This document shows positions 34 to 35,210 of a stretch of 64,000 nt of DNA, one piece after another. Under the pieces are notes generated by a model, which was not told the DNA's origin, did not search any database, and was given only the letters and a program-made list of their open reading frames with translations. Source of the DNA: Parcubacteria group bacterium (lineage in GTDB: Bacteria; Patescibacteriota; Minisyncoccia; Phycocordibacterales; Phycocordibacteraceae); NCBI GenBank assembly GCA_028286605.1, contig JAQBRE010000002.1:191720-255719 (forward strand), given 5' to 3'. Made by a program: the position numbers and the translations under genes. Position 1 is the first letter of the stretch. Every line of letters starts with the position of its first letter.

Positions 34-513
34 ATGATTCAGCTTATGACTGAATATAAGAAAGTTGCTAAACTAAGCTTAGTTGACGCTGCATATGTTG
101 CTGGCTTAATTGACGGCGAAGGAACAATAACTCTTACAAGAAGACAAAAGAACAAGGAGCGTTGCGTTGCCATTACTATCGCAAATACAGAACTAGATCT
201 TCTTGAATTTCCTCTCGCTATTATCAAGGCAGGAATAATTACTTCTAAGAAAACCTTTAAACCAAATCACTCTGCTTCATATGTATATCAAATATCAGGA
301 AGACAAGCTTTAGATCTTTTGGAACAGATAACACCATTTCTAAAATCTTATAAAAAGAATCGAGCTCAATTTTTGCTAAAGGACTATATTCGACTTACGC
401 CGCGTAACGGTCGCTATACAGCGGACCAGCTTCAAGAAAGAAAAGCGTTTGTGGAAGAGTTCTTTACAATTACAGCAAATGGAAACAGCCCGCATGTGCG
501 GGCTGTTTCCTAG
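34..513 (+). CDS. LAGLIDADG homing endonuclease, single-motif (I-CreI-like), 159 aa
   Basis: Contains the motif VAGLIDGEGT (LAGLIDADG signature) and is the right size for a single-motif homodimeric enzyme. The ORF begins 33 nt into the window, so its upstream context is unknown. Confidence 0.75.
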   Translation: MIQLMTEYKKVAKLSLVDAAYVAGLIDGEGTITLTRRQKNKERCVAITIANTELDLLEFPLAIIKAGIITSKKTFKPNHSASYVYQISGRQALDLLEQITPFLKSYKKNRAQFLLKDYIRLTPRNGRYTADQLQERKAFVEEFFTITANGNSPHVRAVS

Positions 514-517
514 ATTG

Positions 518-934
518 TGGAGGTGCGGGAAATCGAATCCCGGTCCGAATCCGGCCTTGAAAGCGAGTCTACGACGCGTAGCTGCTGTTGAAGTTTCAGC
601 AGGAATGTAAAAACGTCAGCGAAACCATTCCTGCCTGAGTCCTAAGTCTTAATAATCAAGCTGGACCAGCCGGACTATCGATCTCTTAGAGAATTACGCC
701 CATACACTCAGCTAAGAGAACCTGAATGTGTGAACGTCGCTAGGCGAACGTGCGGTTAGGCAGTCGCGTAGGCGAACGCAAAGTCGTTCTTCGTGAAAAA
801 CGGAGAGACGAGGCTCTTTGCGCTTGCAACGGTTTTGTTTGCAAGTATTTTTGATTGCGAGATTTAGGTGGTCTGCAATCATCCACCGCGTCGCACGTCT
901 CTCAAGGTACAGACCGTCAAAGCCGGTCACCCCC
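518..934 (-). ncRNA. ssrA: tmRNA (ssrA), one-piece
   Basis: Read on the minus strand, the 5' end is GGGGGUGACCGGCUUUGACGG. The 3' end is a T-arm CGGGA-UUCGAUU-UCCCG followed directly by CACCUCC plus a discriminator A. This gives a 7-bp acceptor stem with a G3:U70 wobble, the alanine identity element. An internal tag reading frame ends ...NDFAFAYATA then UAA. It lies immediately downstream of smpB on the same strand. Confidence 0.7.
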
Positions 935-988
935 AGTGCGGACACTATCAGGAGATGGTGTCCGGACTGCGAGCGGCCCGCATGCGCA

Positions 989-1459
989 CTACTTCTTGCC
1001 GCGCATCGCTTGCTGGATCTCGCGCTCGTCGTCTTTGCGCTTGAGGTCCTGACGCTTGTCCGCTTTGTTCTTTCCGCGGACGATCGCGATGCGCACCTTG
1101 ATGTATCGACCAGCATTATACACTTCAAAAGGCACTACTGTCAACCCTTTCTTCGATTCAGCATCGCCGATCTCTGCGATCTCATCTTTCTTGAGAAGCA
1201 GACGTCGCGTCGCGTCCGGCTGATAGCCTTCAGGCGTGTTGGCGACCTGATACGGAGAGATACTCATCCCAACCAGGAACGCTTCGCCACCGCGTACGAG
1301 CACGCGAGCACCTTCAAGAGACCCCTGTTTCTTACGCAGGGATTTCGTTTCAGCGCCACTCAGCTCGATACCGGCCTGAAAGGGCTTGAGTATCTCGAAG
1401 CGCAGATGTGCTTTCTTGTTTTCGACTAAGTTCATGAAGAAATGGTCGCCATATCGCAC
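989..1459 (-). CDS. smpB: SsrA-binding protein SmpB (probable true start at 1435, MNLVENKKAH...)
   Basis: Shows SmpB-like sequence: KKAHLRFEILKPFQAGIELSGAETKSLRKK...ISPY...LLLKKDEI...GLTVVPFEVY, with a basic C-terminal tail. Confidence 0.85.
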   Translation of the reverse strand: MRYGDHFFMNLVENKKAHLRFEILKPFQAGIELSGAETKSLRKKQGSLEGARVLVRGGEAFLVGMSISPYQVANTPEGYQPDATRRLLLKKDEIAEIGDAESKKGLTVVPFEVYNAGRYIKVRIAIVRGKNKADKRQDLKRKDDEREIQQAMRGKK

Positions 1460-3451
1460 GGCGTTCCACTATTGTATAGTGTGCTAGATATGGCACCTAA
1501 CAGCAACACCACGCCTCCGGAAGGGGGAAAGAAGAAACAGATAAAGAAGAGTTCAGGCACTGCGCCTGAAGACGGAAAGAAGAAGCTGCCAGGATCTGGC
1601 ATGCCCGGCGGATCAGGCTTCCTTATGAATCTCGGAATGACGATCATCATCTTCCTGCTCCTTATTAGCGGGTATTCAGCTATTACTGGCCTCACGAAGC
1701 AGAAGGTACAGGTGCCTCTTTCCCAGGTTGCCGCGGACGTGAAATCTGGAGCCGTGAAGGAAATCGATGTGAACGGAAACGATCTCGATCTCACGTATGC
1801 AGACGGCACGCACAAGACAGCGATGAAGGATCCGGATACGGGTCTTCCTGAAACGCTTGCGACCTATGGCGCTACGCCAGATCAGCTTTCTGCGGTTGCT
1901 ATAAAGATCCAGAATGAATCTGGCTTCAAGTTCTGGTTCCTTACGTTCGCACCGATCATCTTCCCCGTAATACTCCTCGGCATTCTGTTCCTGTTCTTGG
2001 TTCGTCAGGTAAGGGGCGCTGGCATGCAGGCATTCACGTTCGGTCAGTCGAAGGCGCGCATGACTGATCCTGCGGATCAGTCGCAGCGCGTTACGTTCGC
2101 GGACGTCGCCGGCGCGAAGGAAGCGAAGGAAGAATTAATGGAGATAGTGGATTTCTTGAAGAATCCTAAGAAATTCCTGGATATAGGTGCGCGTATTCCT
2201 AAGGGCATCCTGCTTATGGGTGCTCCCGGTACCGGAAAGACGCTGCTCGCGCGCGCAGTCGCCGGCGAAGCCGGCGTGCCATTCTTCTCGATTTCCGGTT
2301 CGGAATTCGTTGAGATGTTCGTGGGTGTCGGCGCGTCGCGTGTGCGTGATCTCTTCCAGATCGCTAAGAAAGCAGCACCTTCGATCATCTTCGTCGATGA
2401 GATCGATGCGGTTGGTCGCGTGCGCGGTTCAGGTGTCGGTGGCGGAAACGATGAACGCGAACAGACGCTCAATCAGATCCTCGTGGAAATGGACGGCTTC
2501 GATCCTACTGAAAAGGTTATCGTCATGGCGGCAACGAACCGTCCGGACGTTCTCGACCCTGCACTGATGCGCCCAGGCCGTTTCGATCGTCGTGTAACGA
2601 TCGATCTTCCTGACCGAAAGGATCGCCTCGAGATTCTTGCCGTGCATTCACGCACGAAGCCATTCGGTCCTGATGTGAATCTTGAAGTGATCGCAGAACG
2701 CACGCCAGGATTCTCGGGTGCAGAACTCTACTCGCTCATGAACGAAGGCGCGATCCTTGCCGCGCGTGAGAATCGCACGGAAGTGACGCAGTACGATCTC
2801 ATCCGCTCAATCGAGAAAGTCATGCTCGGCCCTGAACGCAAGAGCCACCTTATGAATAAGGAAGAGAAGAAGCTCACGGCATATCACGAGGCGGGTCATG
2901 CGCTCGTTACCTCCGTCCTTGAATTCGCTGATCCGGTGCACAAGATATCGATCATCAGTCGCGGACGTGCAGGCGGCTACACGCTCAAGCTTCCGTTCGA
3001 AGATCACAAGATGCAGAGCCGCAAGGAATTCCTTGATGACATCGCGGGTACGCTCGGCGGCTTCGCGGCTGAAGAGCTTATCTACGGCGACGTTACCACC
3101 GGCCCATCAAACGATCTTGCCGTGGTTACGGCGCTCGCACGCGATATGGTCTCACGCTATGGCATGAGCGACGTTATCGGTCCGGTTGCGTTCGCCACGG
3201 ATCATTCGTATCGCAACGAAACGTATTCGCAGGACATCGCTGCGAAGATCGATGCGGAAGTTTCGCGCATGATGGAAGAAGGGAAGAATCGCGCACGTCA
3301 GGTGCTTATGGATCATCGTGGCGCACTTGATGCTATCGCATTGAAGCTCGTTGAAGTCGAGACGCTTGAACGCGAAGAATTCGAGAAGATACTCATTGCT
3401 AACGGAATCACGCCGAAGAGCAAGAAGGAGGAGGACGTGCTGAAGGTGTAA
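1442..3451 (+). CDS. ftsH: ATP-dependent zinc metalloprotease FtsH (alternative start at 1490)
   Basis: Has an N-terminal TM region, Walker A GAPGTGKT, an AAA second region of homology, and the zinc-binding motif HEAGHA. Confidence 0.95.
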
Positions 3452-3472
3452 GAGATACGAGCATAAAAAGAA

Positions 3473-3504
3473 AGACGGCGGCCTCGGAGAGGTCGCCGCT
3501 TTTT
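3473..3504. terminator. Putative bidirectional rho-independent terminator
   Basis: A GC-rich hairpin GACGGCGGCC-tcggagag-GTCGCCGC is followed by TTTTT. It sits between the convergent ftsH and small-membrane-protein genes. Confidence 0.5.
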
Positions 3505-3520
3505 CGTATAGAACGAAGTC

Positions 3521-3739
3521 CTATCGAAGGTCTTCGGGTTTCGTCGGTGCGGTTGAGACGCTACCGAGATAGGTGATCGCCAGCAGCACGACTCCCAGGA
3601 GTAGAATCACTCCTGTAAACGTCATGACGCTGGCAGCTTCGGGATAATGCGGCATGGCGTGCCCGCCGCCGAATATGAGCCCGAAGCCTGCTATGAATAG
3701 CAGAAGCACGGTCCATTTACGCTTAGTCATCAATAGCAT
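3521..3739 (-). CDS. Small hypothetical membrane protein (72 aa)
   Basis: An ORF with two hydrophobic segments and no recognisable motif. Confidence 0.4.
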   Translation of the reverse strand: MLLMTKRKWTVLLLFIAGFGLIFGGGHAMPHYPEAASVMTFTGVILLLGVVLLAITYLGSVSTAPTKPEDLR

Positions 3740-3820
3740 CCCTCTGTTTCAATCCTTTCTGACCATATAAGAAAGGACGGACATGCGCAAGAAATGGAAA
3801 GCGTGTAAAGTATCTGAGAC

Positions 3821-3894
3821 GCATGCGTAGCTCAGTTGGTTAGAGCTCGGAGCTTATACCTCCGCGGTCCCTGGTTCGAGTCCAGGCGCATGCA
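3821..3894 (+). tRNA. tRNA with anticodon UAU (reads AUA; tRNA-Ile(UAU)-type)
   Basis: Folds as a cloverleaf: acceptor GCAUGCG/CGCAUGC, U8, D-stem GCUC/GAGC, anticodon stem CGGAG/CUCCG, loop CUUAUAC, T-arm CCUGG-UUCGAGU-CCAGG, discriminator A. No CCA is encoded. Confidence 0.7.
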
Positions 3895-4731
3895 CTATTT
3901 AGGGAATATATCGGTGAGCTGATTCGAGTTGTAGAAATCCAGTGCAAGACCGCCGAAACTGAAGGTTTGATTGCCTGCGGTAATCTCTGCACCGCCAACC
4001 TGCGGACTCGCATTTGGCATCGAATGCTGGAAACCGATATTGTAGAGCGTCGAGAGCACTGCGATATTGCTATCGATGGGGAAGCCGGCGTTTCGCCACT
4101 GCGCTTCGATTTCTTTTATATAGAGGCCTGCATACACATAGCTCCAGTAATGGTTGTGCTGGTCAGTCATGCGCGTGAAGCGTGCCGTGGTGATATCAGT
4201 CGTCGTCGCAGGAAAGTCGAGCAGATGCGCGTACTGGTCGCCAGGATAGTACGGAGATGTCGGATCCTTCAGATTATTTTCAACCTGTATGGCTGTCGCT
4301 TCCTTCATGCCCATGACACCCCAGCTGAACTGCGTTTGCGAGCCGAGAATCTTAAGCGGCAGGAAGAACTGTTTGTAGAGTTCGCGTTCAGTGAAGAAAA
4401 GGCGCAGCTGTTCGGCAACGAGATTCGCGGCAATTAAACGCGCAGGTACGCCGGAGGCACTCGCTGCTGTAGTAAGTGCTGTTTGATCTTTCGTGAGTGC
4501 TGCAGCGATGACGCCCCACTCTTCGGTCTGCTGCCATGGAAGATTCGAATCGTTGGAGACAGCCTGAGAAGCTGCGGGGCCAAGAAATGATTCACGCTGG
4601 AGGTCTACGACGCCTTTTTCATTCGTCAGGCCGAACTTCACGGCGAAGTAGCCGGCAACCAGAAAAATGCCGATCGCTGCGAAGATATAAATGACGATAT
4701 TGAGTCCAATCTTAAGGTGCTTTTTCTCCAT
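3895..4731 (-). CDS. Hypothetical membrane-anchored secreted protein (278 aa)
   Basis: Has an N-terminal TM helix then a large extracytoplasmic domain. No recognisable catalytic motif. Confidence 0.5.
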   Translation of the reverse strand: MEKKHLKIGLNIVIYIFAAIGIFLVAGYFAVKFGLTNEKGVVDLQRESFLGPAASQAVSNDSNLPWQQTEEWGVIAAALTKDQTALTTAASASGVPARLIAANLVAEQLRLFFTERELYKQFFLPLKILGSQTQFSWGVMGMKEATAIQVENNLKDPTSPYYPGDQYAHLLDFPATTTDITTARFTRMTDQHNHYWSYVYAGLYIKEIEAQWRNAGFPIDSNIAVLSTLYNIGFQHSMPNASPQVGGAEITAGNQTFSFGGLALDFYNSNQLTDIFPK

Positions 4732-4784
4732 AGGTGCACGTACTGTATCGTGCGGAACGTGGGAAGTAAATGAAAGGCACTATG

Positions 4785-8130: not shown

Positions 8131-8149
8131 TCCGCTATACTGTGCGTAT

Positions 8150-9367: not shown

Positions 9368-9368
9368 T

Positions 9369-9851: not shown

Positions 9852-9959
9852 ACGTTTCAGATTAGCTAATGGATATATTCTACAGGGCGTGTCTTTACGT
9901 TCGTTTCAGTGGTCATATGAACAGTATATCCTCTAGAAGTGAGAGGAAGATTAAGACTG

Positions 9960-15467: not shown

Positions 15468-15500
15468 AAACAAGACCGCGTTCGCGGTCTTGTTTCTTAG
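15468..15500. terminator. Bidirectional rho-independent terminator
   Basis: A near-perfect hairpin AAACAAGACCGCG/CGCGGTCTTGTTT is followed by TCTT. Confidence 0.55.
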
Positions 15501-15587
15501 CGGAGACGGAGGGATTCGAACCCTCGAAGGGTTTAACCCCTTACATCGTTAGCAGTGATGCGCCTTCGACCACTCGGCCACGTCTCC
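15501..15587 (-). tRNA. tRNA-Ser (anticodon GCU), long variable arm
   Basis: Has acceptor GGAGACG/CGUCUCC, U8, a 3-bp D-stem, anticodon loop CUGCUAA, a long variable arm UAAGGGGUUAAACCCUUCG, T-arm GAGGG-UUCGAAU-CCCUC and discriminator G. Confidence 0.85.
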
Positions 15588-15603
15588 GTTCAGCTACTAT
15601 ATG

Positions 15604-16221: not shown

Positions 16222-16223
16222 AC

Positions 16224-16850: not shown

Positions 16851-16986
16851 CTATTCATGCTATCCAGTTCCTTATCCACAGTCTTCATATAGCAGCTGCA
16901 TAGCGTGAATAGATTTTCAGATTTTCACTATGCTAATTTCATTTTTTCTTGAAGTTGGAAAAGCGAGCAGATGATACAATGCCTGC

Positions 16987-18075: not shown

Positions 18076-18097
18076 ATGTGCATAACCACGTACGCCT

Positions 18098-19362: not shown

Positions 19363-19371
19363 TCTTTCTTT

Positions 19372-19683
19372 ATGCACCTCACCAAAAGCAATATCATACT
19401 CGCCGTCGTCGCAGGTCTCACCCTCATCGCGGCAGTCTATTATTATTTCTTCTATAACAAGGACACCGGCTCGGCAGTCGTTGCGACAGCGCCAGCAAGC
19501 GCTGCTGAACTTGATTTCGTGAATCTGACGGGCCAGATCAGTACGATTTCTTTCGACACGCGCATCTTCTCTGATCCGCGCTTCACGCGCCTCGTTGACA
19601 TACATACGGTCGTCGTACCAGAAACGGCCGGCCGCCGTGACCCATTCGCTCCGCTAACCGGCACTGCTACGACCGGAAAGTAA
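19372..19683 (+). CDS. Small membrane-anchored protein, possible PilP-like
   Basis: A 103-aa protein with one TM, positioned between pilO and pilB. Confidence 0.35.
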   Translation: MHLTKSNIILAVVAGLTLIAAVYYYFFYNKDTGSAVVATAPASAAELDFVNLTGQISTISFDTRIFSDPRFTRLVDIHTVVVPETAGRRDPFAPLTGTATTGK

Positions 19684-19698
19684 TAGTGATTCACATGC

Positions 19699-21459: not shown

Positions 21460-21481
21460 CAAAACCTTTTCATATCTATTT

Positions 21482-21871
21482 ATGTCCGCACTCTATCGCA
21501 TCTATCTCGTTGACGACGACCGCTTCCTGCTCGACATGTATGCAGTGAAATTCAAGGCAGCAGGTCATGAAGTGACTGCATTTCAAGGTGGCACGCTTGT
21601 GCTCGACGCATTGCGTTCAGGCGCTGCGGCACCGGACGCACTGCTTCTTGATATCGTTATGCCAGAGATAGATGGCTTCGGCGTACTTGAGGCAATACGC
21701 AAGGAAAATCTTATCCCGACGACGAAGATCATCGTGCTTTCTAATCAGGGTCAGGAGTCCGATATCGAGCACGCTACGAAGCTTGGCGTCGCGGGCTATA
21801 TTATCAAGGCATCTGCGATACCGTCTGAAGTATTCTCTGAGACGATTCGTATTATAGAAAAGAAAGCATGA
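21482..21871 (+). CDS. Single-domain response regulator (CheY-like receiver)
   Basis: Has YLVDDD, a phospho-acceptor Asp within LLLDIVMP, and a conserved K in the C-terminal region. Confidence 0.8.
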   Translation: MSALYRIYLVDDDRFLLDMYAVKFKAAGHEVTAFQGGTLVLDALRSGAAAPDALLLDIVMPEIDGFGVLEAIRKENLIPTTKIIVLSNQGQESDIEHATKLGVAGYIIKASAIPSEVFSETIRIIEKKA

Positions 21872-22935
21872 GCACAGGTACCGCAAAGAAAATAAGTCCG
21901 CTTCTCGACACAGTGATAAGTGAAGGCGGTTCAGACCTGCACCTTTCTGCAGGCGTGCATCCTATCATCCGTGTCTCCGGCTCGCTCGTTCCGTTGCTGC
22001 AGTATCCGGTGCTCACCCAGGAAGACACGATGGAGATGCTCAAGAGCATGGTGCCTACGGAACGGCTCCCTACATTCGAAAGCAATCAGTCCGTGGACTT
22101 TTCGTATTCGCATAACGAACAGTCACGTTTCCGTGTAAACGGCTACGTAGTGCAAGGAAAGGTTGCGATGGCGATGCGTCTCATTCCGCACGAGACCTTC
22201 ACGTTCGCAAACCTGAATCTCCCGCCAATTTTGGAAGTTTTCACGCAGCGCACACAAGGCTTCTTTCTTATTGTTGGACCAGTGGGGCAGGGAAAGTCTA
22301 CGACGATGGCAGCAATCATCGACCGTATCAACGAAACCCGTGCTGAACACATCCTTACGATTGAAGATCCTGTAGAGTATCTCTTCGAGCAGAAGAAGTC
22401 GCTCATCCATCAGCGTGAAGTGCATGTTGATGCGCCGGATTTCGCAAGCGCACTGCAAGCTGCCTTCCGTGAGGACATGAACGTGATCATGGTGGGCGAG
22501 ATGCGCGATCAGGAAACTATCTCTGCTGCGGTTACTGCTGCTGAAACCGGTCACCTTGTTCTTTCGACGCTGCACACCAATAATGCCGCGCAGACCATCG
22601 ACCGTATCATCGACATGTTCCCTTCGACACAGCAGGATCAGGTGCGCGTGCAGCTTGCCGGCTCGCTTGCGGGTATCTTCTCGCAGCGTCTCGTGCCGCG
22701 TATCCAGGGCGGTTTGATTCCTGCGTACGAGCTGCTCATCAACAACAACGCCGTCGCGAATCTTATCCGCGAAGGACGTACGCATGAAATCACGACCGTC
22801 GTGCAGACTAGCTCGCAGGAAGGAATGGTTGATCTTGACCGCTCGCTCGCCGAGCTCGTTCGTCGCGGGGAAGTGACTATAGAACACGCGTATGAACGTT
22901 CACTCGACCCTAAGACCTTCGAACGCTACCTCTAA
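21868..22935 (+). CDS. pilT: Twitching-motility (retraction) ATPase PilT
   Basis: Has Walker A GPVGQGKSTT and MVGEMRD...HLVLSTLHTN. Confidence 0.9.
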   Translation: MSTGTAKKISPLLDTVISEGGSDLHLSAGVHPIIRVSGSLVPLLQYPVLTQEDTMEMLKSMVPTERLPTFESNQSVDFSYSHNEQSRFRVNGYVVQGKVAMAMRLIPHETFTFANLNLPPILEVFTQRTQGFFLIVGPVGQGKSTTMAAIIDRINETRAEHILTIEDPVEYLFEQKKSLIHQREVHVDAPDFASALQAAFREDMNVIMVGEMRDQETISAAVTAAETGHLVLSTLHTNNAAQTIDRIIDMFPSTQQDQVRVQLAGSLAGIFSQRLVPRIQGGLIPAYELLINNNAVANLIREGRTHEITTVVQTSSQEGMVDLDRSLAELVRRGEVTIEHAYERSLDPKTFERYL

Positions 22936-22938
22936 TCT

Positions 22939-24147
22939 ATGCTTTTTGCTTACCGCGCCCTTGATGCAGACGGACATGAACGCTCAGGAAGCGTGGAGGC
23001 TCTTTCGCAGGATGTCGCCGTTGCGACGCTTCAGCGCCGCAACCTGATCGTCTCGTCCATTGAGCCGCTCGTTGCCAATAAAGGACTTACGGCGAATCTC
23101 GACCTTTTCAAGCATGTTTCTAACAAAGAGATCGTTATCCTTTCACGTCAGATAGCAACGCTCTTCGAGGCACAGGTTTCTGCGCTTCGCATTTTCCGCC
23201 TGCTCGCTTCAGAAGTCGATAACAAGTATCTCGGAGAAATCATGGGACAGGTCGCGGACGACCTGCAGGGCGGAAGTCCTATTTCAAAGGCGCTTGCGCG
23301 CCACCCGAAGGTCTTCACTCCTTTTTATGTAAACATGGTGCGTTCCGGCGAAGAGTCTGGAAAGCTCTCAGAGACCTTCGGCTATCTGGCTGACTATCTC
23401 GACCGCACCTATGAAGTAATGAGCAAGGCGCAGAATGCGCTCATCTATCCGGCGTTCGTTATCGGCGTGTTCTTCGTCGTGATGGCACTGATGATGACGG
23501 TCGTGATTCCGAAGATCAGTGTGATCCTTCTGGATTCCGGAGAAGCGATACCGATGTACACACAGGTGGTGATTTGGATATCGCAATTCCTTGTGAAATT
23601 CGGCTTTCTTATCATCATCGCTATGATCGTAGGAGCATTCGTTGCGTATCGCATGATGCAGACTGAGCAGGGGAAGCTTTTCTTCGACAGCTTCAAGCTT
23701 GATATCCCCTATGTAGGCGATCTCTATTCGAAGCTTTATCTTTCACGCATCGCGGATAACTTCGCAACGATGCTCGTTTCCGGCGTGCCACCGGTCGAAG
23801 CTGTTGAAATAACGGCATCGGTGGTGGGGAGCAAGACATTCGAGGACTTGCTGCGCGAAGCAGCCGAAGAAGTGAAGGGCGGCGTCCCTATTTCAGACGC
23901 ACTTGGCAAGCATCCGGAAATTCCTGGCATCATGGTTGCCATGATCCGTGTGGGTGAAGAGACCGGAGAGCTCGGTAATATCCTCAATACGCTCGGCAAG
24001 TTCTATCGTCGTGAAGTATCGAACTCAGTCGACACGCTGGTCGGTCTTATCGAGCCTCTCATGATCGTCTTTCTCGGACTTGGTGTCGGTACGTTGCTCG
24101 CATCGGTTATGATTCCGATCTACAACCTCGCTGGCGCGATCAACTAG
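22939..24147 (+). CDS. pilC: Type IV pilus platform protein PilC (GspF family)
   Basis: Contains two T2SSF repeats and three TM helices. Confidence 0.9.
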   Translation: MLFAYRALDADGHERSGSVEALSQDVAVATLQRRNLIVSSIEPLVANKGLTANLDLFKHVSNKEIVILSRQIATLFEAQVSALRIFRLLASEVDNKYLGEIMGQVADDLQGGSPISKALARHPKVFTPFYVNMVRSGEESGKLSETFGYLADYLDRTYEVMSKAQNALIYPAFVIGVFFVVMALMMTVVIPKISVILLDSGEAIPMYTQVVIWISQFLVKFGFLIIIAMIVGAFVAYRMMQTEQGKLFFDSFKLDIPYVGDLYSKLYLSRIADNFATMLVSGVPPVEAVEITASVVGSKTFEDLLREAAEEVKGGVPISDALGKHPEIPGIMVAMIRVGEETGELGNILNTLGKFYRREVSNSVDTLVGLIEPLMIVFLGLGVGTLLASVMIPIYNLAGAIN

Positions 24148-24259
24148 CCCGCACGTTTTATATTCTTATCCACAGAGTAAACCGTTCGTGCGTAATCTTC
24201 ACGTACAATACATGTAGCGGAACATTACTCGTAACCCGCATTACCTTACTTAAAAAAAT

Positions 24260-24760
24260 ATGACATCTGTATCTTCTGCGGCGCGACGTGGTTTCACTCT
24301 CATCGAGCTCCTCGTCGTTATCGCTATCATCGGCATTCTCTCCTCCGTCGTGCTCGCCTCTTTGAATACGGCACGTAACAAGGGAGCGGACGCGGCAGTC
24401 AAGTCGAACCTTGAGCAGGCTCGTACTCAGGGCGAACTCTTCTACGACGCGAACAGCAACAATTACCTCCAAGGTGCGGCAGGATCAGGCAATACTGCTG
24501 ATGCGTGTTCTCCTGCAGGTTCCATTGGAACTTTGACTGGTGTATACAAGTCGGTTCTTGCAGCAGCTCAGGCGGTCGGCATTAGCACCGTGAGCGAAAA
24601 TACGCTTGGTGCTGCTGGTGTTGCAAACTGCAATATCATCACAACAGCATGGGCAGCTTCAGTGCCGCTTAAGTCAACGACTGGTTACTTCTGTGTAGAC
24701 AGCACTGGTGTCGCAACCACAACAGCAACGGCACTCGCTGCCGGACTACAGCACTGTTAA
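24260..24760 (+). CDS. pilA: Type IV major pilin (prepilin), paralog 1
   Basis: Leader MTSVSSAARRG then a cleavage site before FTLIELLVVIAIIGILSSVVLASL. Four Cys in the C-terminal region would give two disulfides. Confidence 0.85.
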   Translation: MTSVSSAARRGFTLIELLVVIAIIGILSSVVLASLNTARNKGADAAVKSNLEQARTQGELFYDANSNNYLQGAAGSGNTADACSPAGSIGTLTGVYKSVLAAAQAVGISTVSENTLGAAGVANCNIITTAWAASVPLKSTTGYFCVDSTGVATTTATALAAGLQHC

Positions 24761-24782
24761 TCCAGCGTTCTTGTGTGCAACA

Positions 24783-24805
24783 AAAGGCCCCTTCGGGGCC
24801 TTTTG
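24783..24805 (+). terminator. Strong rho-independent terminator after pilin paralog 1
   Basis: Perfect hairpin AAAAGGCCCCTTCGGGGCCTTTTGTATTT. Confidence 0.8.
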
Positions 24806-24872
24806 TATTTCTATCTTGGACTTGTCCTTGGACGAAAATATTTAAACCGAAATGTCCCGTATACTGAATGGA

Positions 24873-25358
24873 ATGAGCTTTCCCCGGCGCGGCTTCACGC
24901 TCATAGAGCTCCTCGTTGTTGTTGCTATCATTGGTGTTCTTTCTTCTGTCGTTCTTGCGTCGCTCACTACGGCGCGTAACAAGGGAGTGGACGCGGCAGT
25001 CAAGTCAAACCTCGAACAGGCTCGCACACAGGGCGAACTCTTCTATAGCGCGAATAACAATTCGTATGACGGCGGCACCGCACCAACCAGCGTTTGTAAC
25101 CCGCTCGCTTCAGCTGGCGGCCTTATTGGCGCCAACAGATCAATTCTTGCCGCAGCGCAGGCAATCGGTCAGAATACCGTTACTCTTCTTGGTACAGGCG
25201 CCACGTCGGTATGCAATAGCAATGCCGGCGCATGGGTGGCACAGGTGCCGCTCAAGTCTGTGGCTGGTTTTTTCTGTATCGATAGTACTGGTGTAGCAAC
25301 AACTACACTCCTTGCTTCTCCGGGCCTTGTTAGCGGGGCTGGCGATTTCGCTTGCTAA
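24873..25358 (+). CDS. Type IV major pilin paralog 2 (ORF opens at 24852; likely start MSFPRRG)
   Basis: Reads RRGFTLIELLVVVAIIGVLSSVVLASLTTARNKGVDAAVKSNLEQARTQGELFY, nearly identical to paralog 1 over the N-terminal ~55 aa. Confidence 0.8.
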   Translation: MSFPRRGFTLIELLVVVAIIGVLSSVVLASLTTARNKGVDAAVKSNLEQARTQGELFYSANNNSYDGGTAPTSVCNPLASAGGLIGANRSILAAAQAIGQNTVTLLGTGATSVCNSNAGAWVAQVPLKSVAGFFCIDSTGVATTTLLASPGLVSGAGDFAC

Positions 25359-25406
25359 TCCACACTGCGTACGATAGTGAAGGAAGTATCACGTATAATA
25401 AAAACA

Positions 25407-25931
25407 ATGCGTTCTCCTCGCCTCGGCTTCACTCTCATCGAGCTCCTCGTCGTTATCGCTATCATCGGCATTCTCTCGAGCATCGTGCTTTCATCGCTTA
25501 ATACAGCGCGCAATAAAGGTAATGATGCAGCGATTAAATCGAATCTTGATCAGGCGCGCACGGGAGCGGAATTATTTTATGATTCAAATAACAATCACTA
25601 TGTGACGGCGGCTGGAGCAGCGACGGATGTGTGCTCTTCAACTGGCACGGCAGGTGGAATAAACAGCATATACAAATCAGTACTTGCTGCTGCACAGGCA
25701 GCTGGTTTGAGTAGCGTGGACACGACCCTTCTAGTCTTATCACCAATTGGTAACGCCGTATGTCACTCATGCTATCCAGGTGAAGCGGGTTCGGATTGCG
25801 GAACAGCCGATCGTTGGGCTGCTCAGGTACCACTAAAGTCCGCCCCCGGAGTTGTGTGGTGCGAGGATTCATCTGGATCGGTAGGTACCAGTACTAATAC
25901 GCTCGCGAGCGGCGATACGCATTGCAACTAA
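25407..25931 (+). CDS. Type IV major pilin paralog 3 (ORF opens at 25377; likely start MRSPRLG)
   Basis: Reads RLGFTLIELLVVIAIIGILSSIVLSSLNTARNKGNDAAIKSNLDQARTGAELFY. Confidence 0.8.
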   Translation: MRSPRLGFTLIELLVVIAIIGILSSIVLSSLNTARNKGNDAAIKSNLDQARTGAELFYDSNNNHYVTAAGAATDVCSSTGTAGGINSIYKSVLAAAQAAGLSSVDTTLLVLSPIGNAVCHSCYPGEAGSDCGTADRWAAQVPLKSAPGVVWCEDSSGSVGTSTNTLASGDTHCN

Positions 25932-25934
25932 TTC

Positions 25935-26696
25935 GTGATTGAGTCCTGGTTCATTCTGGCTGCTTTCTTTATACTCGGCGCATTGTGCGCGAGCTTTACC
26001 GGCGTGGTTGCAGAGCGATTGCATACAGGGCAGTCATGGGTGAGCGGACGCTCGCGCTGTAATTCCTGCAGTGCATATCTGGATGGGCGCGATTTAATTC
26101 CGATACTTTCCTGGTTGCTGTGGACGGGGAAGTGTCGACAATGTCGCGCCCGGGTACCGGGCGCATACGCGCTTTCGGAGCTTTCGCTCGCTATTGCGTT
26201 TGCTGCGGCATATCATCTGTTCGGCTTTTCTTTGGTTCTCCCGTTCTTCCTTGTGGCACTTATCGTCCTTCTTTTCATAGTCCTGTACGACTTACGTCAT
26301 ATGATCGTGCCGACCGGAAGCTCGACGTTGCTACTGGTGCTTTCGGTGATCGTTGCGGTGCTCAGAGCGCCTGCCCTGCAGGCGCTCGGCCTCGTATTCC
26401 TGGTCGCCGGCGCCATCGCGATCTTCTTCTTCCTACTGCATGTATGCTCGCGCGGCCGTGCCATGGGATTGGGTGATGCGCCCGTAGCTCTCGCCCTATC
26501 GCTGCTGGTAGGCACGCAGGCGATCGCTGGACTCATGTTTTCATTCTGGGTGGGGGCGTTGTACGGCATCGTCGTATTGAGTACACGGCGCGGAGGGCCT
26601 AGAATGGGTATTGAGGTACCGTTCGTGCCATTCTTGGCTATCGGCTTTCTCCTCGCCCTTTTTACTGCATGGAACCCATTCGCACTCGTCCTCTGA
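25935..26696 (+). CDS. pilD: Prepilin peptidase PilD (A24 family)
   Basis: Has an N-terminal Cys tetrad (CNSC...CRQC), polytopic membrane topology, and catalytic Asp contexts LYDLRH and GLGDAPV. Confidence 0.85.
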   Translation: MIESWFILAAFFILGALCASFTGVVAERLHTGQSWVSGRSRCNSCSAYLDGRDLIPILSWLLWTGKCRQCRARVPGAYALSELSLAIAFAAAYHLFGFSLVLPFFLVALIVLLFIVLYDLRHMIVPTGSSTLLLVLSVIVAVLRAPALQALGLVFLVAGAIAIFFFLLHVCSRGRAMGLGDAPVALALSLLVGTQAIAGLMFSFWVGALYGIVVLSTRRGGPRMGIEVPFVPFLAIGFLLALFTAWNPFALVL

Positions 26697-27349
26697 TAGC
26701 GCGCAGGCTAGACGCTTCGCGCGGCTTCACATTGATCGAGATGCTCGTTACGCTTTCGATACTCGCTATCATTACTGCAGTGGCTGTTACTGGGCAATCC
26801 ACCTTCAATCATTCGATCCTGCTGAATGATACGAGCTATACGATCGCGCTCTCTGCACGCGAAGCGCAATCGCTCGGCCTCTCGAGCCGTAAATTCGCAA
26901 ACGTACAGAACGGCGGGTATGGCGTTGATTTCAAGAGCGCTACGCCTTCAAAATATACTGTCTTCGCTGACATTCAGAGCATCGCCTCAGAACCGGCGTG
27001 GTGTCCGGCCATAGCCACCAGTACTCCGGAAAACAAATCTGGAAACTGCTTATATGACGGGGCGGGGGAGACATTCCAAACGTATGATCTTACGCGCGGG
27101 TATACGATAAGTAATTTCTGCGGAAAGGCGGGAGCAACGCTTACGTGTTCGAGCGGGGGTGGTCTGCAATCTTTGGATGTGCTGTATCTGCGTCCCAATA
27201 CTACAGCAATCATCACAGGCATCACCACGGGGGGTACGGTCCAATTTACTTGCGCACAGATATATGTGAAATCGCCAACAGATACCGCGACGCAGACGGT
27301 GCGAATGTCCTCGCTGGGTGAAGTATCGGTCGGCCAAACTTGTCCATGA
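26669..27349 (+). CDS. Minor pilin / pseudopilin 1
   Basis: Class III signal: SRGFTLIEMLVTLSILAIITAVAV. Confidence 0.65.
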   Translation: MEPIRTRPLIARRLDASRGFTLIEMLVTLSILAIITAVAVTGQSTFNHSILLNDTSYTIALSAREAQSLGLSSRKFANVQNGGYGVDFKSATPSKYTVFADIQSIASEPAWCPAIATSTPENKSGNCLYDGAGETFQTYDLTRGYTISNFCGKAGATLTCSSGGGLQSLDVLYLRPNTTAIITGITTGGTVQFTCAQIYVKSPTDTATQTVRMSSLGEVSVGQTCP

Positions 27350-27912
27350 GTATGCGCACTTCACGCCCCGGCTTCACTCTTATTGAAATGATCGTGTCGG
27401 TCGGCCTTTTTGCGATCGTGATGCTGGTCTCGACAGGCGCATATCTCTCGCTCATAAGTCTGGACCGTAAGGCACGTGCGACGAATGACCTCGTGACGAA
27501 TCTTTCATTCGTCATCGACACGATGGAGCGTAGTATGCGCTCGGGATCTAATTTCCAATCCGGTGGAATCGGAGGCACGAACTCACCGCCTACCGGCGAC
27601 ACTAGCCTTGCCTTCGTTAATGATCAGGGTCAGACGGTTACCTATATTTTTGATGCGACGAATCATTCAATTGGGGAGTGCGTTGGTGCTGTAACCTGTA
27701 CATCATCGAATGATCAGACCCTTACGGACCCGCGTGTCATTATTACGAGCATGAAATTCTATGTACGCGGTGTCGGTACCGCTACACCGAATGATATCGT
27801 CCAGCCATGGGCCACCTTCGTGACAACCGGCTCGATTACGCCAGATTCAACGTCGCAACCGATTACGTTCACGATACAAAGTACTGCCTCTGCACGCGCC
27901 CCTGAACTATGA
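27340..27912 (+). CDS. Minor pilin / pseudopilin 2
   Basis: Class III signal: RPGFTLIEMIVSVGLFAIVML. Confidence 0.7.
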   Translation: MSMSMRTSRPGFTLIEMIVSVGLFAIVMLVSTGAYLSLISLDRKARATNDLVTNLSFVIDTMERSMRSGSNFQSGGIGGTNSPPTGDTSLAFVNDQGQTVTYIFDATNHSIGECVGAVTCTSSNDQTLTDPRVIITSMKFYVRGVGTATPNDIVQPWATFVTTGSITPDSTSQPITFTIQSTASARAPEL

Positions 27913-28439
27913 TAAAACTACGCACAAAGAAGGGATTTACGCTTGTTGAAACGCTGGTAGCGATTTCGATACTCATGGTTAGTATCGTGGGCCCCATGTA
28001 TAGCGTATTTCAGGCTGTACAGACAACGTACATCGCGCGCGACCAGCTTATTGCAACGGCATTGGCACAGGAGGGGATAGAATACGTGCGTCATCATCGC
28101 GATAATAATTCCCTCTACAACCTCAAGAACCCTGGAAGCCCCGTATCATGGATGAATGGGCTCAGTGCATGTACCGGACAGAATTGTATGGTAGATGTTA
28201 TTGCTTCTGATAGCGTTCCGCCGGTTACATGTAGTGGTACGTGTTCGCCCCTCGACAATGCTACTGTTGCTCCCTTTTATTATAACTATATAAGTGGTAC
28301 GCCAAGCCGCTTTACTCGCACGGTCAGAATCAACACGGTAAGCGCAAATGAAGTAGTCGTAACCTCGACGGTGAGCTGGATTAATTCGAAGATTCCATTT
28401 TCTGTTACCGTTACGGAACACTTGTATAATTGGCTATGA
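27909..28439 (+). CDS. Minor pilin / pseudopilin 3
   Basis: Class III signal: KKGFTLVETLVAISILMVSIVGP. Confidence 0.7.
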   Translation: MIKLRTKKGFTLVETLVAISILMVSIVGPMYSVFQAVQTTYIARDQLIATALAQEGIEYVRHHRDNNSLYNLKNPGSPVSWMNGLSACTGQNCMVDVIASDSVPPVTCSGTCSPLDNATVAPFYYNYISGTPSRFTRTVRINTVSANEVVVTSTVSWINSKIPFSVTVTEHLYNWL

Positions 28440-29743
28440 TTTATACCCCCTCATCACCGCGCGGCTTCACGCTCCTTATCGCCGTCATACTTTCAACCGT
28501 CGTCCTTACGGTGGGTCTTTCGCTGCTCGATGTCGCATACAAGCAGACCATTCTTTCTTCCACAGCGAAACAATCGCAGGCGGCGTTTTATAATGCGGAT
28601 TCCGCGCTTGAATGCGCGTTGTATTACGATCAGAAACTCGATGCCTTCGATTTCGCGACGCCTTTAGCTGCTTCATCGCTTACCTGCAGCAGTACGCCCG
28701 TAACGAATTATTCTACGGTTGTAAACCCTGCAATGACAATGCGTACGACCATCTTCACAACCCCGTGCCCAGGGAGCGGCATTTCTGCAACGACGACCAT
28801 ATATAAATATGCAGGCGGTGCAACGAGCTTGTATGCAGACGGCTTTAATACATGTACTGCGACTGATCCACGTCGTGTCGAGCGCGGTTTGAAGGCTACC
28901 TATGGTGACCCTTCGGCTCCGGTTATTCCTTCAGGCCCTTCGCTTACGTATTTGATAGTTGCAGGCGGCGGCGGCGGCGCTGCCTGGGCAGGTGGCGGTG
29001 GCGGTGGCGGTGGCGTTATAACCGGAAGCGCAGCAGCGACATCAGGAAGCTATTCGATAGTGGTTGGCAGTGGAGGCGCTTCGGGCTTTACTGGTAGCCC
29101 CACACCTTCTGATTATCAAGGAAAGAATGGAACTAATTCTTCGTTCAATGGAATGAGCGCGATAGGCGGTGGCGGTGGCGGCGCGTCTACGCCGGTTGCA
29201 GCGCCTGGCAGTGCCGGAGGTTCGGGCGGTGGCGCTGGATACCCTAGTTCAGGAACAAATGCCGGAGGCGCAGGTACGGCAGGTCAGGGAAATAGCGGTG
29301 CTTCTGAAGCATCTGTACCGGGAACTTGGGCAGGCGGCGGCGGCGGTGCGAGCGCTGCAGGTACTTCAGGAAGTGCCGCAGCAGCGGGTGCAGGTGGCGC
29401 AGGACTGAGCAGTGCTATAAGCGGTTCGTCAGTTGTGTACGGTTCAGGCGGCGGTGGTGGCGACTGGACCGCGACGGCATTTGGTCCGGGCGGATCTGGC
29501 GCAGGAAGCGGTGGCGGCATAGGAAATCCAGCTCTCGCCAATAGAGGCGGTGGCGGTGGCGGTGGCGGTTTCTTCCCCGGCCCCGGCGGAGAACCAGGAG
29601 GCGTGGGTGGATCTGGTGTCGTAATAATTAGTATTCCTACGTCTTCGGCTGCGGGTATTACTACGACGGGCGCCACGCTCACCACTTCTGGCGGCAACAA
29701 TATATATACATTCACCGGAAACGGCACGTTCGTTGTACCGTAA
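28430..29743 (+). CDS. Large minor pilin (PilX-like N-terminus) with a ~250-aa glycine-rich low-complexity C-terminal region
   Basis: Has PRGFTLLIAVILSTVVLTV at the N-terminus, a globular middle, and long Gly/Ala/Ser runs such as GGGGGAAWAGGGGGGGGV. Confidence 0.65.
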   Translation: MAMIYTPSSPRGFTLLIAVILSTVVLTVGLSLLDVAYKQTILSSTAKQSQAAFYNADSALECALYYDQKLDAFDFATPLAASSLTCSSTPVTNYSTVVNPAMTMRTTIFTTPCPGSGISATTTIYKYAGGATSLYADGFNTCTATDPRRVERGLKATYGDPSAPVIPSGPSLTYLIVAGGGGGAAWAGGGGGGGGVITGSAAATSGSYSIVVGSGGASGFTGSPTPSDYQGKNGTNSSFNGMSAIGGGGGGASTPVAAPGSAGGSGGGAGYPSSGTNAGGAGTAGQGNSGASEASVPGTWAGGGGGASAAGTSGSAAAAGAGGAGLSSAISGSSVVYGSGGGGGDWTATAFGPGGSGAGSGGGIGNPALANRGGGGGGGGFFPGPGGEPGGVGGSGVVIISIPTSSAAGITTTGATLTTSGGNNIYTFTGNGTFVVP

Positions 29744-29753
29744 TTTCCTGTAG

Positions 29754-31778
<2,025 letters not shown>

Positions 31779-31790
31779 TAGAGTACCCGC

Positions 31791-32093: not shown

Positions 32094-32094
32094 T

Positions 32095-33531: not shown

Positions 33532-33538
33532 TAAGCTG

Positions 33539-34162: not shown

Positions 34163-34827
34163 TTCGGTATTTCAGCAATACTTGCGAGTATTCTTCTTCG
34201 AAGCGAGGTGCTGTTTCGTACTTTTATGCGAATCGTGCCGATATAGGTTTTTGAATCACGATCTACGTTTCCATACCCGCTTATATATGTTGGTTTTGAA
34301 AATTGTTCTCTGGGAATATTTGTCTCTTTAGACCAGAAAGAAGTAATTCTCTCGGTTTCGTCATTGTATAAATTATTAATTGTTATTCGAGCATGAATAT
34401 CTTTTAGTGGAATTTGATAACACATATCGAGCCATTGAATTGCGGTATTTATAATCTTTGGGTCTGAATTCGTAAATCCAAACTCCTGACTTCCTCTTTT
34501 GTATCCTTCACCCCAATACAAACCAATTCCAAGCATAAAAAGATCACGGATTTGTAACATGTCTATATCTTCTTTCCCTTGCTTTGTCTGAGCCAAGATG
34601 TCATGAATTTTTCGAGTCTTGTTTTTCTCAATCCACGGAGCAAGTGCTGCTAGTGACGCAGTGCGATGTCGTTCAGACAAGTACTCCTTCTGCTTAGTCG
34701 TTAGAGAAACGTTTTTACACCATCTACTTACAGTGCTGCTGCTTACTCTTAGGTTGTCGGCAATTTCCTTAATACTCATTCCGCTCGCGCGGAGTTCCAA
34801 AGCCCTCCCATGAAGTTCATTTTTCAT
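34126..34827 (-). CDS. HTH-LAGLIDADG homing endonuclease (single-motif) with N-terminal helix-turn-helix
   Basis: Has the HTH MSIKEIADNLRVSSSTVSRW and the LAGLIDADG-type motif LFMLGIGLYWGEGYK. Divergent from the intron-containing tRNA(CAU). Confidence 0.65.
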   Translation of the reverse strand: MKNELHGRALELRASGMSIKEIADNLRVSSSTVSRWCKNVSLTTKQKEYLSERHRTASLAALAPWIEKNKTRKIHDILAQTKQGKEDIDMLQIRDLFMLGIGLYWGEGYKRGSQEFGFTNSDPKIINTAIQWLDMCYQIPLKDIHARITINNLYNDETERITSFWSKETNIPREQFSKPTYISGYGNVDRDSKTYIGTIRIKVRNSTSLRRRILASIAEIPNQISLNWRNTAS

Positions 34828-34884
34828 ACTTTAATGCTAAGCATATATCGGTAAATATTCTCTATATTTTGAGTGAATATAGCA

Positions 34885-34913
34885 TTGCGTTCTTCATATT
34901 TTCCCTATATAAT
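34885..34913 (+). promoter_or_regulatory. Putative sigma70-like promoter for the tRNA(CAU) precursor
   Basis: TTGCGT, a 17-nt spacer, then TATAAT within TATATAAT, ending 8 nt before the tRNA 5' end. Confidence 0.4.
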
Positions 34914-34921
34914 CGCCGGAT

Positions 34922-35210
34922 AGCGGGGTAGAGGAGAGGTACCTCGGGAGGATTGAATTATAAGGGCGTCCGCAGGAGCAATCATGTGGAAGATCAACTG
35001 CCAAATTCGGTGAAACCCTCACGTCCGAAAGGACGAAAGGCAATGCCGAGCCAAGCCTGTCGAAAGACAGGAAGGTGTAGAGACTAGACGGTAGACACCC
35101 CTCGTGGGTGAAGGCATAGTCCAGACCACAAATTCGTCTTCGGACGAAGCAACGAAAGTTGTAGCGGCAAGCATAACCTCCAGACGCCGGTTCGATTCCG
35201 GCCCCCGCAA
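34922..35210 (+). tRNA. tRNA(CAU) (Met/Ile2-type) interrupted by a group I intron; exons 34922-34953 and 35172-35210
   Basis: Exon 1 reads AGCGGGG-U8-A-GAGG-AGAGGUA-CCUC-G-GGAGG-AU. Exon 2 reads CAUAA-CCUCC-AGAC-GCCGG-UUCGAUU-CCGGC-CCCCGC-A. The spliced anticodon loop is AUCAUAA, with U8, A14, G18G19 and the T-loop conserved. Confidence 0.8.
34954..35171 (+). ncRNA. Group I self-splicing intron (IC3-like) in the tRNA anticodon loop, about 218 nt, no internal ORF
   Basis: The 5' splice site follows U33 and the 3' splice site follows a G. Core segments CCAAAUUCGGUGAAACC, GGCAAUGCCGAGCCAAGC and GAAGGUGUAGAGACUAGACGG match the Azoarcus tRNA-Ile(CAU) intron P4-P7 core as recalled from memory. Confidence 0.8.

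Follow-up and report, generated by a model that had tools for sequence, protein, structure and literature searches.

LAGLIDADG genes of three families are paired with stable-RNA genes in Parcubacteria, possibly as free-standing homing endonucleases

Why should every LAGLIDADG gene in a stretch of bacterial chromosome stand beside the gene of a stable RNA? The question is raised by a 64-kb window (the whole stretch of DNA analysed here) from a metagenome-assembled genome of the Parcubacteria/Paceibacteria group, part of the candidate phyla radiation (CPR) of ultra-small bacteria. The original prediction for this window held that three LAGLIDADG open reading frames (ORFs) lie systematically beside stable-RNA genes, namely a transfer-messenger RNA (tmRNA), a tRNA-Ser and an intron-containing tRNA(CAU). 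Indeed, the coordinates confirm that ORF1 adjoins tmRNA, ORF2 adjoins tRNA-Ser(GCU) and ORF3 adjoins the split tRNA(CAU), at distances of 1-94 nt and, as predicted, in no case inside an intron (Table 1). When relatives were surveyed family by family, the same RNA gene was found beside 79/79 testable members of the ORF3 family (fam3), 73/80 of the ORF2 family (fam2) and 10/10 of the ORF1 family (fam1). Pairing with an RNA gene is an inherited property of each of the three families, each of which keeps its own partner. With slightly better than even confidence, we favour the explanation that these are free-standing genes of the LAGLIDADG homing-endonuclease type, each addressed to the adjacent RNA gene as its target.

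The stronger claim, that every LAGLIDADG ORF in the window is attached to an RNA gene, also stood: a Pfam scan of its 101 ORFs of at least 120 aa found LAGLIDADG_3 matches in ORF1 and ORF2 only, and hidden Markov models (HMMs) of the three families gave no further matches in the window beyond ORF1-ORF3. The window contains four stable-RNA genes (tmRNA, tRNA-Ile(UAU), tRNA-Ser(GCU) and the intron-split tRNA(CAU)), which are flanked by roughly 8 of about 60 protein genes; all three LAGLIDADG genes are among these flankers (P ~0.002, a hypergeometric estimate). Pairing by chance is untenable because the family-wide surveys repeat each pairing. In these surveys all relatives' loci were retrieved via their proteins, which places sites without the gene outside the sample. 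The suggestion that the arrangement is lineage-specific held only in part: fam2 and fam3 occur almost only in contigs of the Parcubacteria/Paceibacteria group, but fam1 is also found beside ssrA in records named Nitrospirae/Nitrospirales and Gammaproteobacteria, and distant fam3-like genes lie within the tRNA clusters of large phage contigs.

Table 1. Positions of the three LAGLIDADG genes, their RNA-gene partners and associated features in the 64-kb window.
Feature	Position	Strand	Basis or remark
ORF1 (fam1), 159 aa, free-standing	34-513	+	convergent on tmRNA
Hairpin GGAAACAGCCCGC-ACAT-GCGGGCTGTTTCC, terminator-like, perfect	481-510		directly 3' of the tmRNA gene
tmRNA (ssrA), standard form, no intron	515/517-934	-	ARAGORN; Rfam RF00023, 114 bits
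SmpB	989-1459	-	
FtsH	1442-3451	+	
tRNA-Ile(UAU), no LAGLIDADG neighbour	3821-3895	+	ARAGORN; Rfam tRNA, 68 bits; internal contrast outside the system
tRNA-Ser(GCU), uninterrupted	15500-15587	-	ARAGORN; Rfam tRNA, 57 bits
Predicted sigma-70-like promoter of tRNA-Ser	15596-15624	-	consensus scan
ORF2 (fam2), 205 aa, double-motif	15604-16221	-	
ORF3 (fam3), 233 aa	34126-34827	-	helix-turn-helix (HTH), linker helix and divergent LAGLIDADG-like domain
Divergent intergenic region between ORF3 and tRNA(CAU), 94 nt	34828-34921		TATAAT at 34908-34913, 8 nt before the tRNA 5' end
tRNA(CAU) exon 1, positions 1-33	34922-34953	+	initiator-like
ORF-less group I intron, 218 nt, between positions 33/34 of the anticodon loop	34954-35171	+	Rfam Intron_gpI
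tRNA(CAU) exon 2	35172-35209	+	CAUAA...CCCCCGCA; CCA not encoded

The partner of ORF3 is a gene that ARAGORN misses, because the group I intron splits its anticodon loop at 33/34; exons and intron together span 34922-35209(+). Joining the exons restores the 7-nt anticodon loop AUCAUAA and gives a tRNA(CAU) that folds as a cloverleaf. The intron borders read ...GGAU^ and ...CAAG^, with U before the 5' splice site and G as the last intron base. Against Rfam Intron_gpI (RF00028) the window intron scores 43.1 bits (E=1.5e-9), short of the gathering score of 50; homologous introns exceed that score in 16/17 loci tested (50.6-82 bits). The tRNA has an A1xA72 mismatch, A11:U24 and GCGGGG at acceptor positions 2-7, and by the identity rules of bacterial tRNA-fMet we infer that it is the initiator. 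The window also encodes a tRNA-Ile with anticodon UAU, an unusual bacterial way of reading AUA, which would render a lysidine-modified tRNA-Ile2(CAU) needless and thereby makes tRNA(CAU) more likely the initiator than Ile2.

We scanned 80 fam3 loci from GTDB genomes with an nhmmer profile built from the window's exon-intron-exon sequence, and the intron-split tRNA(CAU) stood directly upstream of the fam3 gene in 79; the sole locus without a match is truncated, with 183 nt of upstream sequence, and the testable total is therefore 79/79. The two genes are divergent in 76 cases, with the tRNA 5' end ~95-140 nt from the ORF start (94 nt in the window), and lie on the same strand in 3. ARAGORN also reports an uninterrupted tRNA-Met(CAU) downstream of many fam3 genes but no tRNA in the closest relatives; searches by BLAST and nhmmer, with exons and intron of the window as queries, identified the upstream split tRNA as the invariant partner. 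Gene and tRNA sit in a conserved LigA-GatA-p207 neighbourhood, in which the pair is inverted as a unit in some lineages. At close range fam3 identity climbs with GatA identity, from ~55% (GatA 65-70%) to ~72% (GatA 80-90%), so inheritance looks mostly vertical, and fam3 appears now to be passed on largely in step with the neighbouring gene. Three loci with fam3, intron tRNA and GatA synteny (L031, L056, L067) come from GTDB records labelled Azotimanducaceae, Burkholderiales and Nitrospira, and these are probably mis-binned CPR contigs.

ORF3 itself consists of an N-terminal HTH, a long linker helix and a C-terminal domain with the single motif GIGLYWGEGYK, and fam3 proteins in general are ~233 aa long on average with 54% mean column identity. 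The C-terminal domain has the alpha-beta-beta-alpha-beta-beta-alpha core fold of the LAGLIDADG superfamily. Comparison by hhalign of the fam3 and fam2 alignments (A1 and A2), and of the trimmed fam3 domain with fam1 and fam2, returned negligible probabilities; fam1 against fam2 failed as well, which makes the comparison uninformative.

ORF1 carries the single motif VAGLIDGEG and matches Pfam LAGLIDADG_3 (PF14528) at 24.7 bits (cut-off 22.5) and LAGLIDADG_1 at 22.2 bits; it is identical to protein JWM39_240 and, among PDB sequences, weakly matches I-MsoI. Its stop codon (511-513) lies 1-3 nt from the 3' end of the convergent tmRNA gene, and the terminator-like hairpin between them also codes for the last 10 codons of the ORF (GNSPHVRAVS). 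This double use probably explains why ORF1 extends ~12-14 aa beyond most relatives, which are typically ~145-147 aa long. The window ends 33 nt beyond ORF1; on the other side, the order ORF-tmRNA-SmpB-FtsH is shared with a second CPR locus, L172. The T-arm of the window tmRNA, CGGGA-TTCGATT-TCCCG, is intact and uninterrupted.

Homologues of ORF1 fall into 702 clusters at 50-73% identity, with names that include Nitrospirae/Nitrospirales, Gammaproteobacteria and Parcubacteria, and by these source names several phyla are represented at 50-66% identity. In each of the ten contexts examined the gene stands at the ssrA 3' end (10/10). In seven non-CPR loci (L163, L165, L166, L167, L174, L164 and L171, the last two cut by the contig end) the tmRNA contains a T-loop intron or its 3' exon: the intron is ORF-less, is 258-289 nt long where complete, and sits in the T-loop as GGTTCGAT^...^TCCCGCC...CCACCA. 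The fam1 ORF then starts 29-89 nt past the tmRNA end on the same strand, and a terminator-like hairpin lies between the two in 4/5 gap sequences read (not in L167). The Rfam tmRNA match hides this intron, since the alignment to the model is made to stop after the 5' exon; the apparent gap sequence proved to hold intron and 3' exon. The CPR loci (the window, L162, L172 and L173) have an intron-less tmRNA and a convergent ORF whose stop lies 1-25 nt away. L172 and L173 are bordered by housekeeping genes whose order is conserved (PurM-like, NAD-binding, SmpB-FtsH), and no integrase lies beside fam1; direct repeats of the RNA 3' end were not searched for. We also observed that the tmRNAs near fam1 in L172 (3444-3849(-)), L162 (at the contig end) and L173 (1051-1453(-)) have the T-loops GGGATCGTTCCCC, GGGATCGTACCCC and GGGTCCGATACCC, which are non-canonical relative to GGTTCGAxTCC, whereas the window tmRNA is canonical. 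These variants could represent target-site immunity or a mere CPR peculiarity.

ORF2 differs from the other two in having two motifs, LAEFIGIMIGDGN (IGIMIGDGN) and IRGLVDTDGC (RGLVDTDGC), and matches LAGLIDADG_3 at 43.1 bits over two stretches (cut-off 22.5). It is identical to protein JWM39_258, and the fam2 profile matches the archaeal intron endonuclease I-Tsp061I (2dch) and VMA inteins. Most fam2 members are 333 aa long and carry an extra HTH-like N-terminal domain of ~130 aa that is absent from ORF2, as it is from P0002 and P0003. In several fam2 genes a single in-frame stop separates the HTH-like and LAGLIDADG domains (L108 464-949/953-1516, L112 3551-3946/3950-4600 and L135 83-373/377-1072), which could mean that the protein has been split in two, that the stop is recoded or that decay is at an early stage. 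The ORF2 stop lies 16 nt upstream of tRNA-Ser(GCU) on the same strand, and among 80 fam2 loci from metagenomes this tRNA, uninterrupted, follows 6-48 nt downstream on the same strand in 73. Of the other seven, five break off less than 100 nt downstream of the gene, L082 ends after 21 nt, and in L155 the gene precedes tRNA-Ser(UGA). These loci were fetched with two peptide patterns, one of them at the C-terminus beside the tRNA. A crude search for the group I core motif AAGGnATAGTCC found none in 81 fam2 loci, which makes an overlooked intron beside ORF2 unlikely.

Gene and tRNA are further tied by a predicted promoter. In the window the -35 box TTGAAT (15624-15619) lies within the ORF2 codons His-Leu-Asn, and the -10 box TATAGT (15601-15596) lies just past the stop, with its last base 8 nt before the tRNA 5' end. 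The pattern TTGAnn-(16-18 nt)-TAnnnT occurs in 55/69 unique fam2 relatives, as against 1.6 expected from shuffles; the -35 hexamer TTGAAx corresponds to the Leu and Lys/Asn codons of a conserved C-terminal KHL(K/N)RY, and beyond the stop codon comes the -10 box, which ends a median of 11 nt before the tRNA. The Leu codon in question is TTG in 67/70 fam2 genes, compared with 19% of all Leu codons in these genes, indicating selection at the DNA level.

Two fam2 paralogues on one 54-kb Parcubacteria contig (L177 and L178; 67% identical), each with its own tRNA-Ser(GCU), show DNA similarity with exact limits, 19 nt ahead of the ORF start on one side and the tRNA 3' end on the other; ORF and tRNA thus behave as one 1.1-kb unit. 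The L178 copy lies near a large serine recombinase, and the L177 copy near a zeta toxin and a LexA-like HTH-Peptidase_S24 gene. The synteny PilM-ComF-fam2-tRNA-Ser is common, and in the window a ComF-like gene (16224-16850) lies directly upstream of ORF2 with a PilM-like gene (16987-18075) beyond. Pairwise fam2 identity is nearly flat at 45-80% where PilM ranges over 29-76% (rho 0.30); relative to its neighbours, fam2 is better conserved between distant genomes and worse between close ones. Allele replacement would give such flatness. ORF2 also adjoins a competence/type IV pilus region (~16224-29743) in which Pfam identifies two T2SSE ATPases and seven N_methyl pilin-like ORFs; DNA-uptake machinery of this kind would give homing endonucleases access to foreign alleles.

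Across the families, the acidic residue of the LAGLIDADG motif has been kept in 115/120 members of fam3, 113/120 of fam1 and 113/120 and 119/120 of fam2 for its two motifs, and both catalytic Asp residues of fam2 are invariant in A2. Only 2 of 120 fam3 members have Gly at the catalytic position. WhiA, a domesticated member of the superfamily, has lost its catalytic acidic residue. L036, L046 and L078 hold degenerate copies with frameshifts or stops. Some fam3-like paralogues have other tRNA neighbours, abutting tRNA-Thr(GGU) in L066 and tRNA-Gln(UUG) in L099; these are sporadic, with a paralogue at 1/9 tRNA-Thr(GGU) genes and likewise a single tRNA-Gln(UUG) case. Finally, nine fam3-like genes, all of them distant, were found in IMG/VR on large phage contigs (L185-L193; 98-497 kb). 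These HTH and LAGLIDADG-like ORFs, at ~3001-3600 of each locus, lie inside tRNA clusters without exception (9/9), ~40-250 nt from a tRNA; in L185, for example, the ORF stands between tRNA-Asn (2867-2944) and tRNA-Glu (3646-3719). One of them, L187, matches LAGLIDADG_3 at E=5e-4, under the cut-off. Close relatives of the three families were absent from viral contigs, where fam2-like matches had no nearby tRNA, and NCBIfam offered no model for these families, matching only intein-containing proteins or HTH transposases. Together, the kept acidic residues, the degenerate copies, the spread of fam1 across phyla and the phage relatives in tRNA clusters point to homing-endonuclease biology with the RNA gene as target.

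The fixed address of each gene most likely reflects a recognition site within the highly conserved neighbouring RNA gene. For fam3 the predicted site is the anticodon loop of the initiator tRNA at 33/34 (intron-less arm ACCTCGGGAGGAT^CATAACCTCCAGACG, around GGGAGGAT^CATAACCTCC), and for fam1 it would be the tmRNA T-loop, the window's own T-arm and acceptor reading GGGATTCGATTTCCCGCACCTCC. In both families the gene and the ORF-less intron would be the two parts of 'collaborative (trans) homing': alleles that lack the intron would be cut by the external endonuclease where the intron inserts, and the intron, by interrupting the target site, would shield its own genome. Since gene and intron lie within ~30-130 nt of each other, they would be co-converted together. 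The single-motif proteins of fam1 and fam3 would presumably act as homodimers on hairpin-loop sites, whose DNA is naturally palindromic. For fam2, with no intron, the 1.1-kb cassette of ORF and tRNA-Ser(GCU) is inherited and duplicated as a unit and may also be gene-converted as one; the -35 box in the last codons of the ORF physically locks the pair, which would explain the invariant linkage. On this scheme the pairs may be mobile even today.

Several observations weigh against this explanation. LAGLIDADG is not among the best 25 Pfam families for ORF3, even at E<=1, and the same is true of each of 32 fam3 members of A1. A homing endonuclease that is fixed, with no empty sites left, should decay, yet fam3 is present with its intron in a fixed syntenic slot and, in its vertical-looking inheritance, is unlike an actively invading element. 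Two fam3 members, P0315 and P0323, have Gly for Glu at the catalytic position (YWGGGYK) and are otherwise well conserved, which hints at a possible fam3 function independent of catalysis. If ORF1 cut the canonical T-loop it would cut its own genome, where that loop is intact. For fam2 there is no intron partner, its stronger conservation than that of ComF and PilM between distant genomes would likewise suit an essential role in the host, and the C-terminal fetch pattern could have biased the sample toward canonical members. The original idea of a way of parking or propagating endonucleases is compatible with these data; the fixed synteny, with fam3 mostly following gatA, fits domestication as well.

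Domestication is therefore a serious rival, one that we regard as a real possibility though on balance doubtful: the proteins would serve the neighbouring RNA gene as trans-acting maturases or splicing cofactors (fam1, fam3) or as HTH-LAGLIDADG regulators of transcription of the adjacent tRNA gene or genes, resembling a WhiA with its domains in the opposite order. The tracking of gatA by fam3, the conservation of fam2 beyond that of flanking ComF and PilM across distant genomes, the intact window T-loop and the fam3 Gly variants make it so, and the N-terminal HTH domains add to it. Long persistence without empty target sites is hard to square with a purely selfish endonuclease; homing genes without empty sites are expected to be lost, and a maturase role is an escape from that loss (PMC3984707). 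Against this stand the metal-binding acidic residues in at least 94% of members of all families, unlike in WhiA and pure maturases, the presence of fam1 in several phyla at 50-66% identity, and the decoupling of fam2 identity from host divergence together with the two cassettes on one contig. The phage relatives lie in tRNA clusters, where selfish endonucleases are the norm. A splicing cofactor would have no intron to assist at fam2 or at ORF1 of the window, and other Patescibacteria tRNA introns are reported to self-splice in vitro without protein (PMC13011429). As for regulation, comparison of relatives revealed neither a conserved operator nor a conserved inverted repeat in the region between ORF3 and the tRNA, and a search there for a copy of the intron-less tRNA site, after the idea of I-TevI-style autorepression, gave nothing conserved.

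Going further, the Paceibacteria proteins could by now be dedicated partners of essential RNA genes, a proposal that we hold tentatively and consider improbable. Here fam3 would be an obligatory trans-acting factor, guardian endonuclease, maturase or both, that keeps the intron in the initiator tRNA gene, fam2 a case of addiction by promoter capture, and many bacterial tRNA and tmRNA introns classed as endonuclease-less would be serviced in trans by a free-standing neighbour. In the case of fam2, the gene may supply the promoter of tRNA-Ser(GCU), and perhaps its control, such that the cell cannot lose it.

Quite unlikely, in our judgement, is that the linkage is a structural lock and nothing else, in which the ORF is tangled with the signals of an essential single-copy RNA gene, rearrangement is lethal and the function of the protein is unrelated. 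Each pair does offer a tangle of this kind: the -35 box of tRNA-Ser in the last codons of ORF2, with its TTG bias, the tmRNA terminator hairpin formed by the last 10 codons of ORF1, and the 94-nt divergent region that ORF3 and tRNA-fMet share and with which they invert together. A lock leaves unexplained why three unrelated LAGLIDADG families, the paralogues at other tRNAs and the phage relatives all reached RNA genes, and why two of the families pair specifically with ORF-less introns; moreover, fam1 keeps its ssrA address although it is oriented and spaced differently in CPR bacteria than in other phyla.

The original prediction had offered as an alternative that each ORF is left over from an intron that has lost its RNA part. 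This is unsupported for ORF3, whose partner intron is present and ORF-less, and for ORF2, whose tRNA is uninterrupted in 73 loci, and is conceivable for ORF1 only, in that its non-CPR relatives flank an intron-containing tmRNA and the window tmRNA lacks the intron. Very little probability attaches to such relics of intron-encoded endonuclease genes, or to cargo of islands that target tRNA and tmRNA 3' ends, even though ssrA is a known hotspot of genomic-island integration, LAGLIDADG genes occur in 23/844 tmRNA introns (PMC11915505) and some fam1 and fam2 flanks hold mobile-element genes (Peptidase_S24, methylase, serine recombinase), for the three ORFs lie clear of the mature RNA coding sequences, which are intact, the spacing is 1-48 nt with shared signals, the 218-nt intron beside ORF3 is too short for the mere loss of an ORF remnant there, ORF2 lies 5' of its tRNA and not on the 3' integration side, and the CPR loci L172 and L173 have housekeeping flanks with no integrase beside fam1.

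The closest counterparts of the free-standing homing genes that we favour are in phages, where collaborative homing has so far been described in two systems: F-CphI is joined to the psbA intron of cyanophage S-PM2, which has no ORF, and MobE to the T4 nrdB intron with its defunct I-TevIII (PMC3984707, PMC2790892, PMC6083498). As there, a free-standing endonuclease gene adjoins a gene with a group I intron that lacks a working endonuclease, and the shared logic that we propose is a cut site at the intron insertion site, immunity through the intron and co-conversion. The present pairs, known from their sequences, differ in that they lie on bacterial chromosomes, have stable RNAs as partners (initiator tRNA and tmRNA) and belong to the LAGLIDADG rather than the HNH or EndoVII-like type; in fam3 the pair is also in fixed synteny in all 79 testable genomes. 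The T4/T6 protein SegB, a free-standing GIY-YIG endonuclease, cuts within the phage tRNA gene region and shows clear presence/absence polymorphism. It resembles our genes in lying among tRNA genes with conserved tRNA DNA as the likely target, and the nine phage fam3-like genes are similarly placed, but it is of another enzyme family, and fam2 and fam3 reside on chromosomes, each bound to a single particular tRNA, and have been conserved for long. WhiA/DUF199 combines LAGLIDADG and HTH in a domesticated transcription factor with the domain order reversed, the HTH being N-terminal here; in contrast to WhiA, fam3 has one LAGLIDADG domain rather than two and mostly keeps its acidic residue, and no sequence similarity between them was detected.

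Endonucleases encoded within introns use the same sites. PD-(D/E)XK genes occur inside cyanobacterial tRNA-fMet introns at 33/34 (PMC13011429), and the tmRNA intron endonucleases are of the LAGLIDADG superfamily, as here, at the same T-loop position after the sixth loop base (PMC11915505). Most bacterial tRNA introns have no endonuclease gene, from which limited mobility was concluded (PMC13011429), and the same holds for most tmRNA introns (PMC11915505); both surveys class such introns as endonuclease-less and, in the portions available, do not treat flanking free-standing genes. The genes described here lie outside both intron and RNA gene, 29-130 nt off. In CPR hosts, I-ShaI-type LAGLIDADG enzymes are known from insertion sequences and introns of rRNA genes, with activity shown for one (PMC11270868). 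Host group, superfamily and a home at stable-RNA genes are shared with our families; those genes, however, lie inside rRNA insertions, and the main text of PMC11270868 contains neither 'tRNA' nor 'free-standing'. Our searches of a full-text literature of limited coverage turned up no account of bacterial tRNA or tmRNA genes with a free-standing LAGLIDADG gene as partner.

What these families appear to represent is collaborative or free-standing homing moved to chromosomal stable-RNA genes and long conserved there. In all relatives examined, a LAGLIDADG gene stands immediately beyond the RNA gene, for the intron at tRNA-fMet 33/34 in Paceibacteria and for that of the tmRNA T-loop in several phyla, and these pairings may explain the upkeep or spread of gene-less introns in bacterial tRNA and tmRNA genes. 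If the proteins do cleave intron-less alleles, this would be the first chromosomal collaborative homing at stable-RNA genes, as far as limited literature searches show; the pairs would be natural intermediates in a proposed pathway of mobile-intron formation, and the classing of many bacterial introns as endonuclease-less would have to be reconsidered. The ORF2/tRNA-Ser(GCU) cassette is an unusual interlock of a selfish-type gene with an essential one, with the predicted tRNA promoter in the end of the ORF. The predicted target sites are short and known, and the proteins could enlarge the LAGLIDADG toolbox with compact enzymes.

Three further loci involve tRNA-Asp(GUC). In L046 a weakly fam2-like ORF (841-1557(-)) abuts exon 1 of a split tRNA-Asp(GUC) with a group I intron at 558-761, and in L050 an ORF with a weak fam2 HMM match (2494-3189(-)) likewise abuts exon 1 of a tRNA-Asp(GUC) with a group I intron at 2223-2415. 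These pairs of ORF and intron look like a fourth pairing of endonuclease and intron-containing tRNA. L075 holds only an intron-split tRNA-Asp, with an intron at 2315-2642 that scores 82.5 bits in Rfam.

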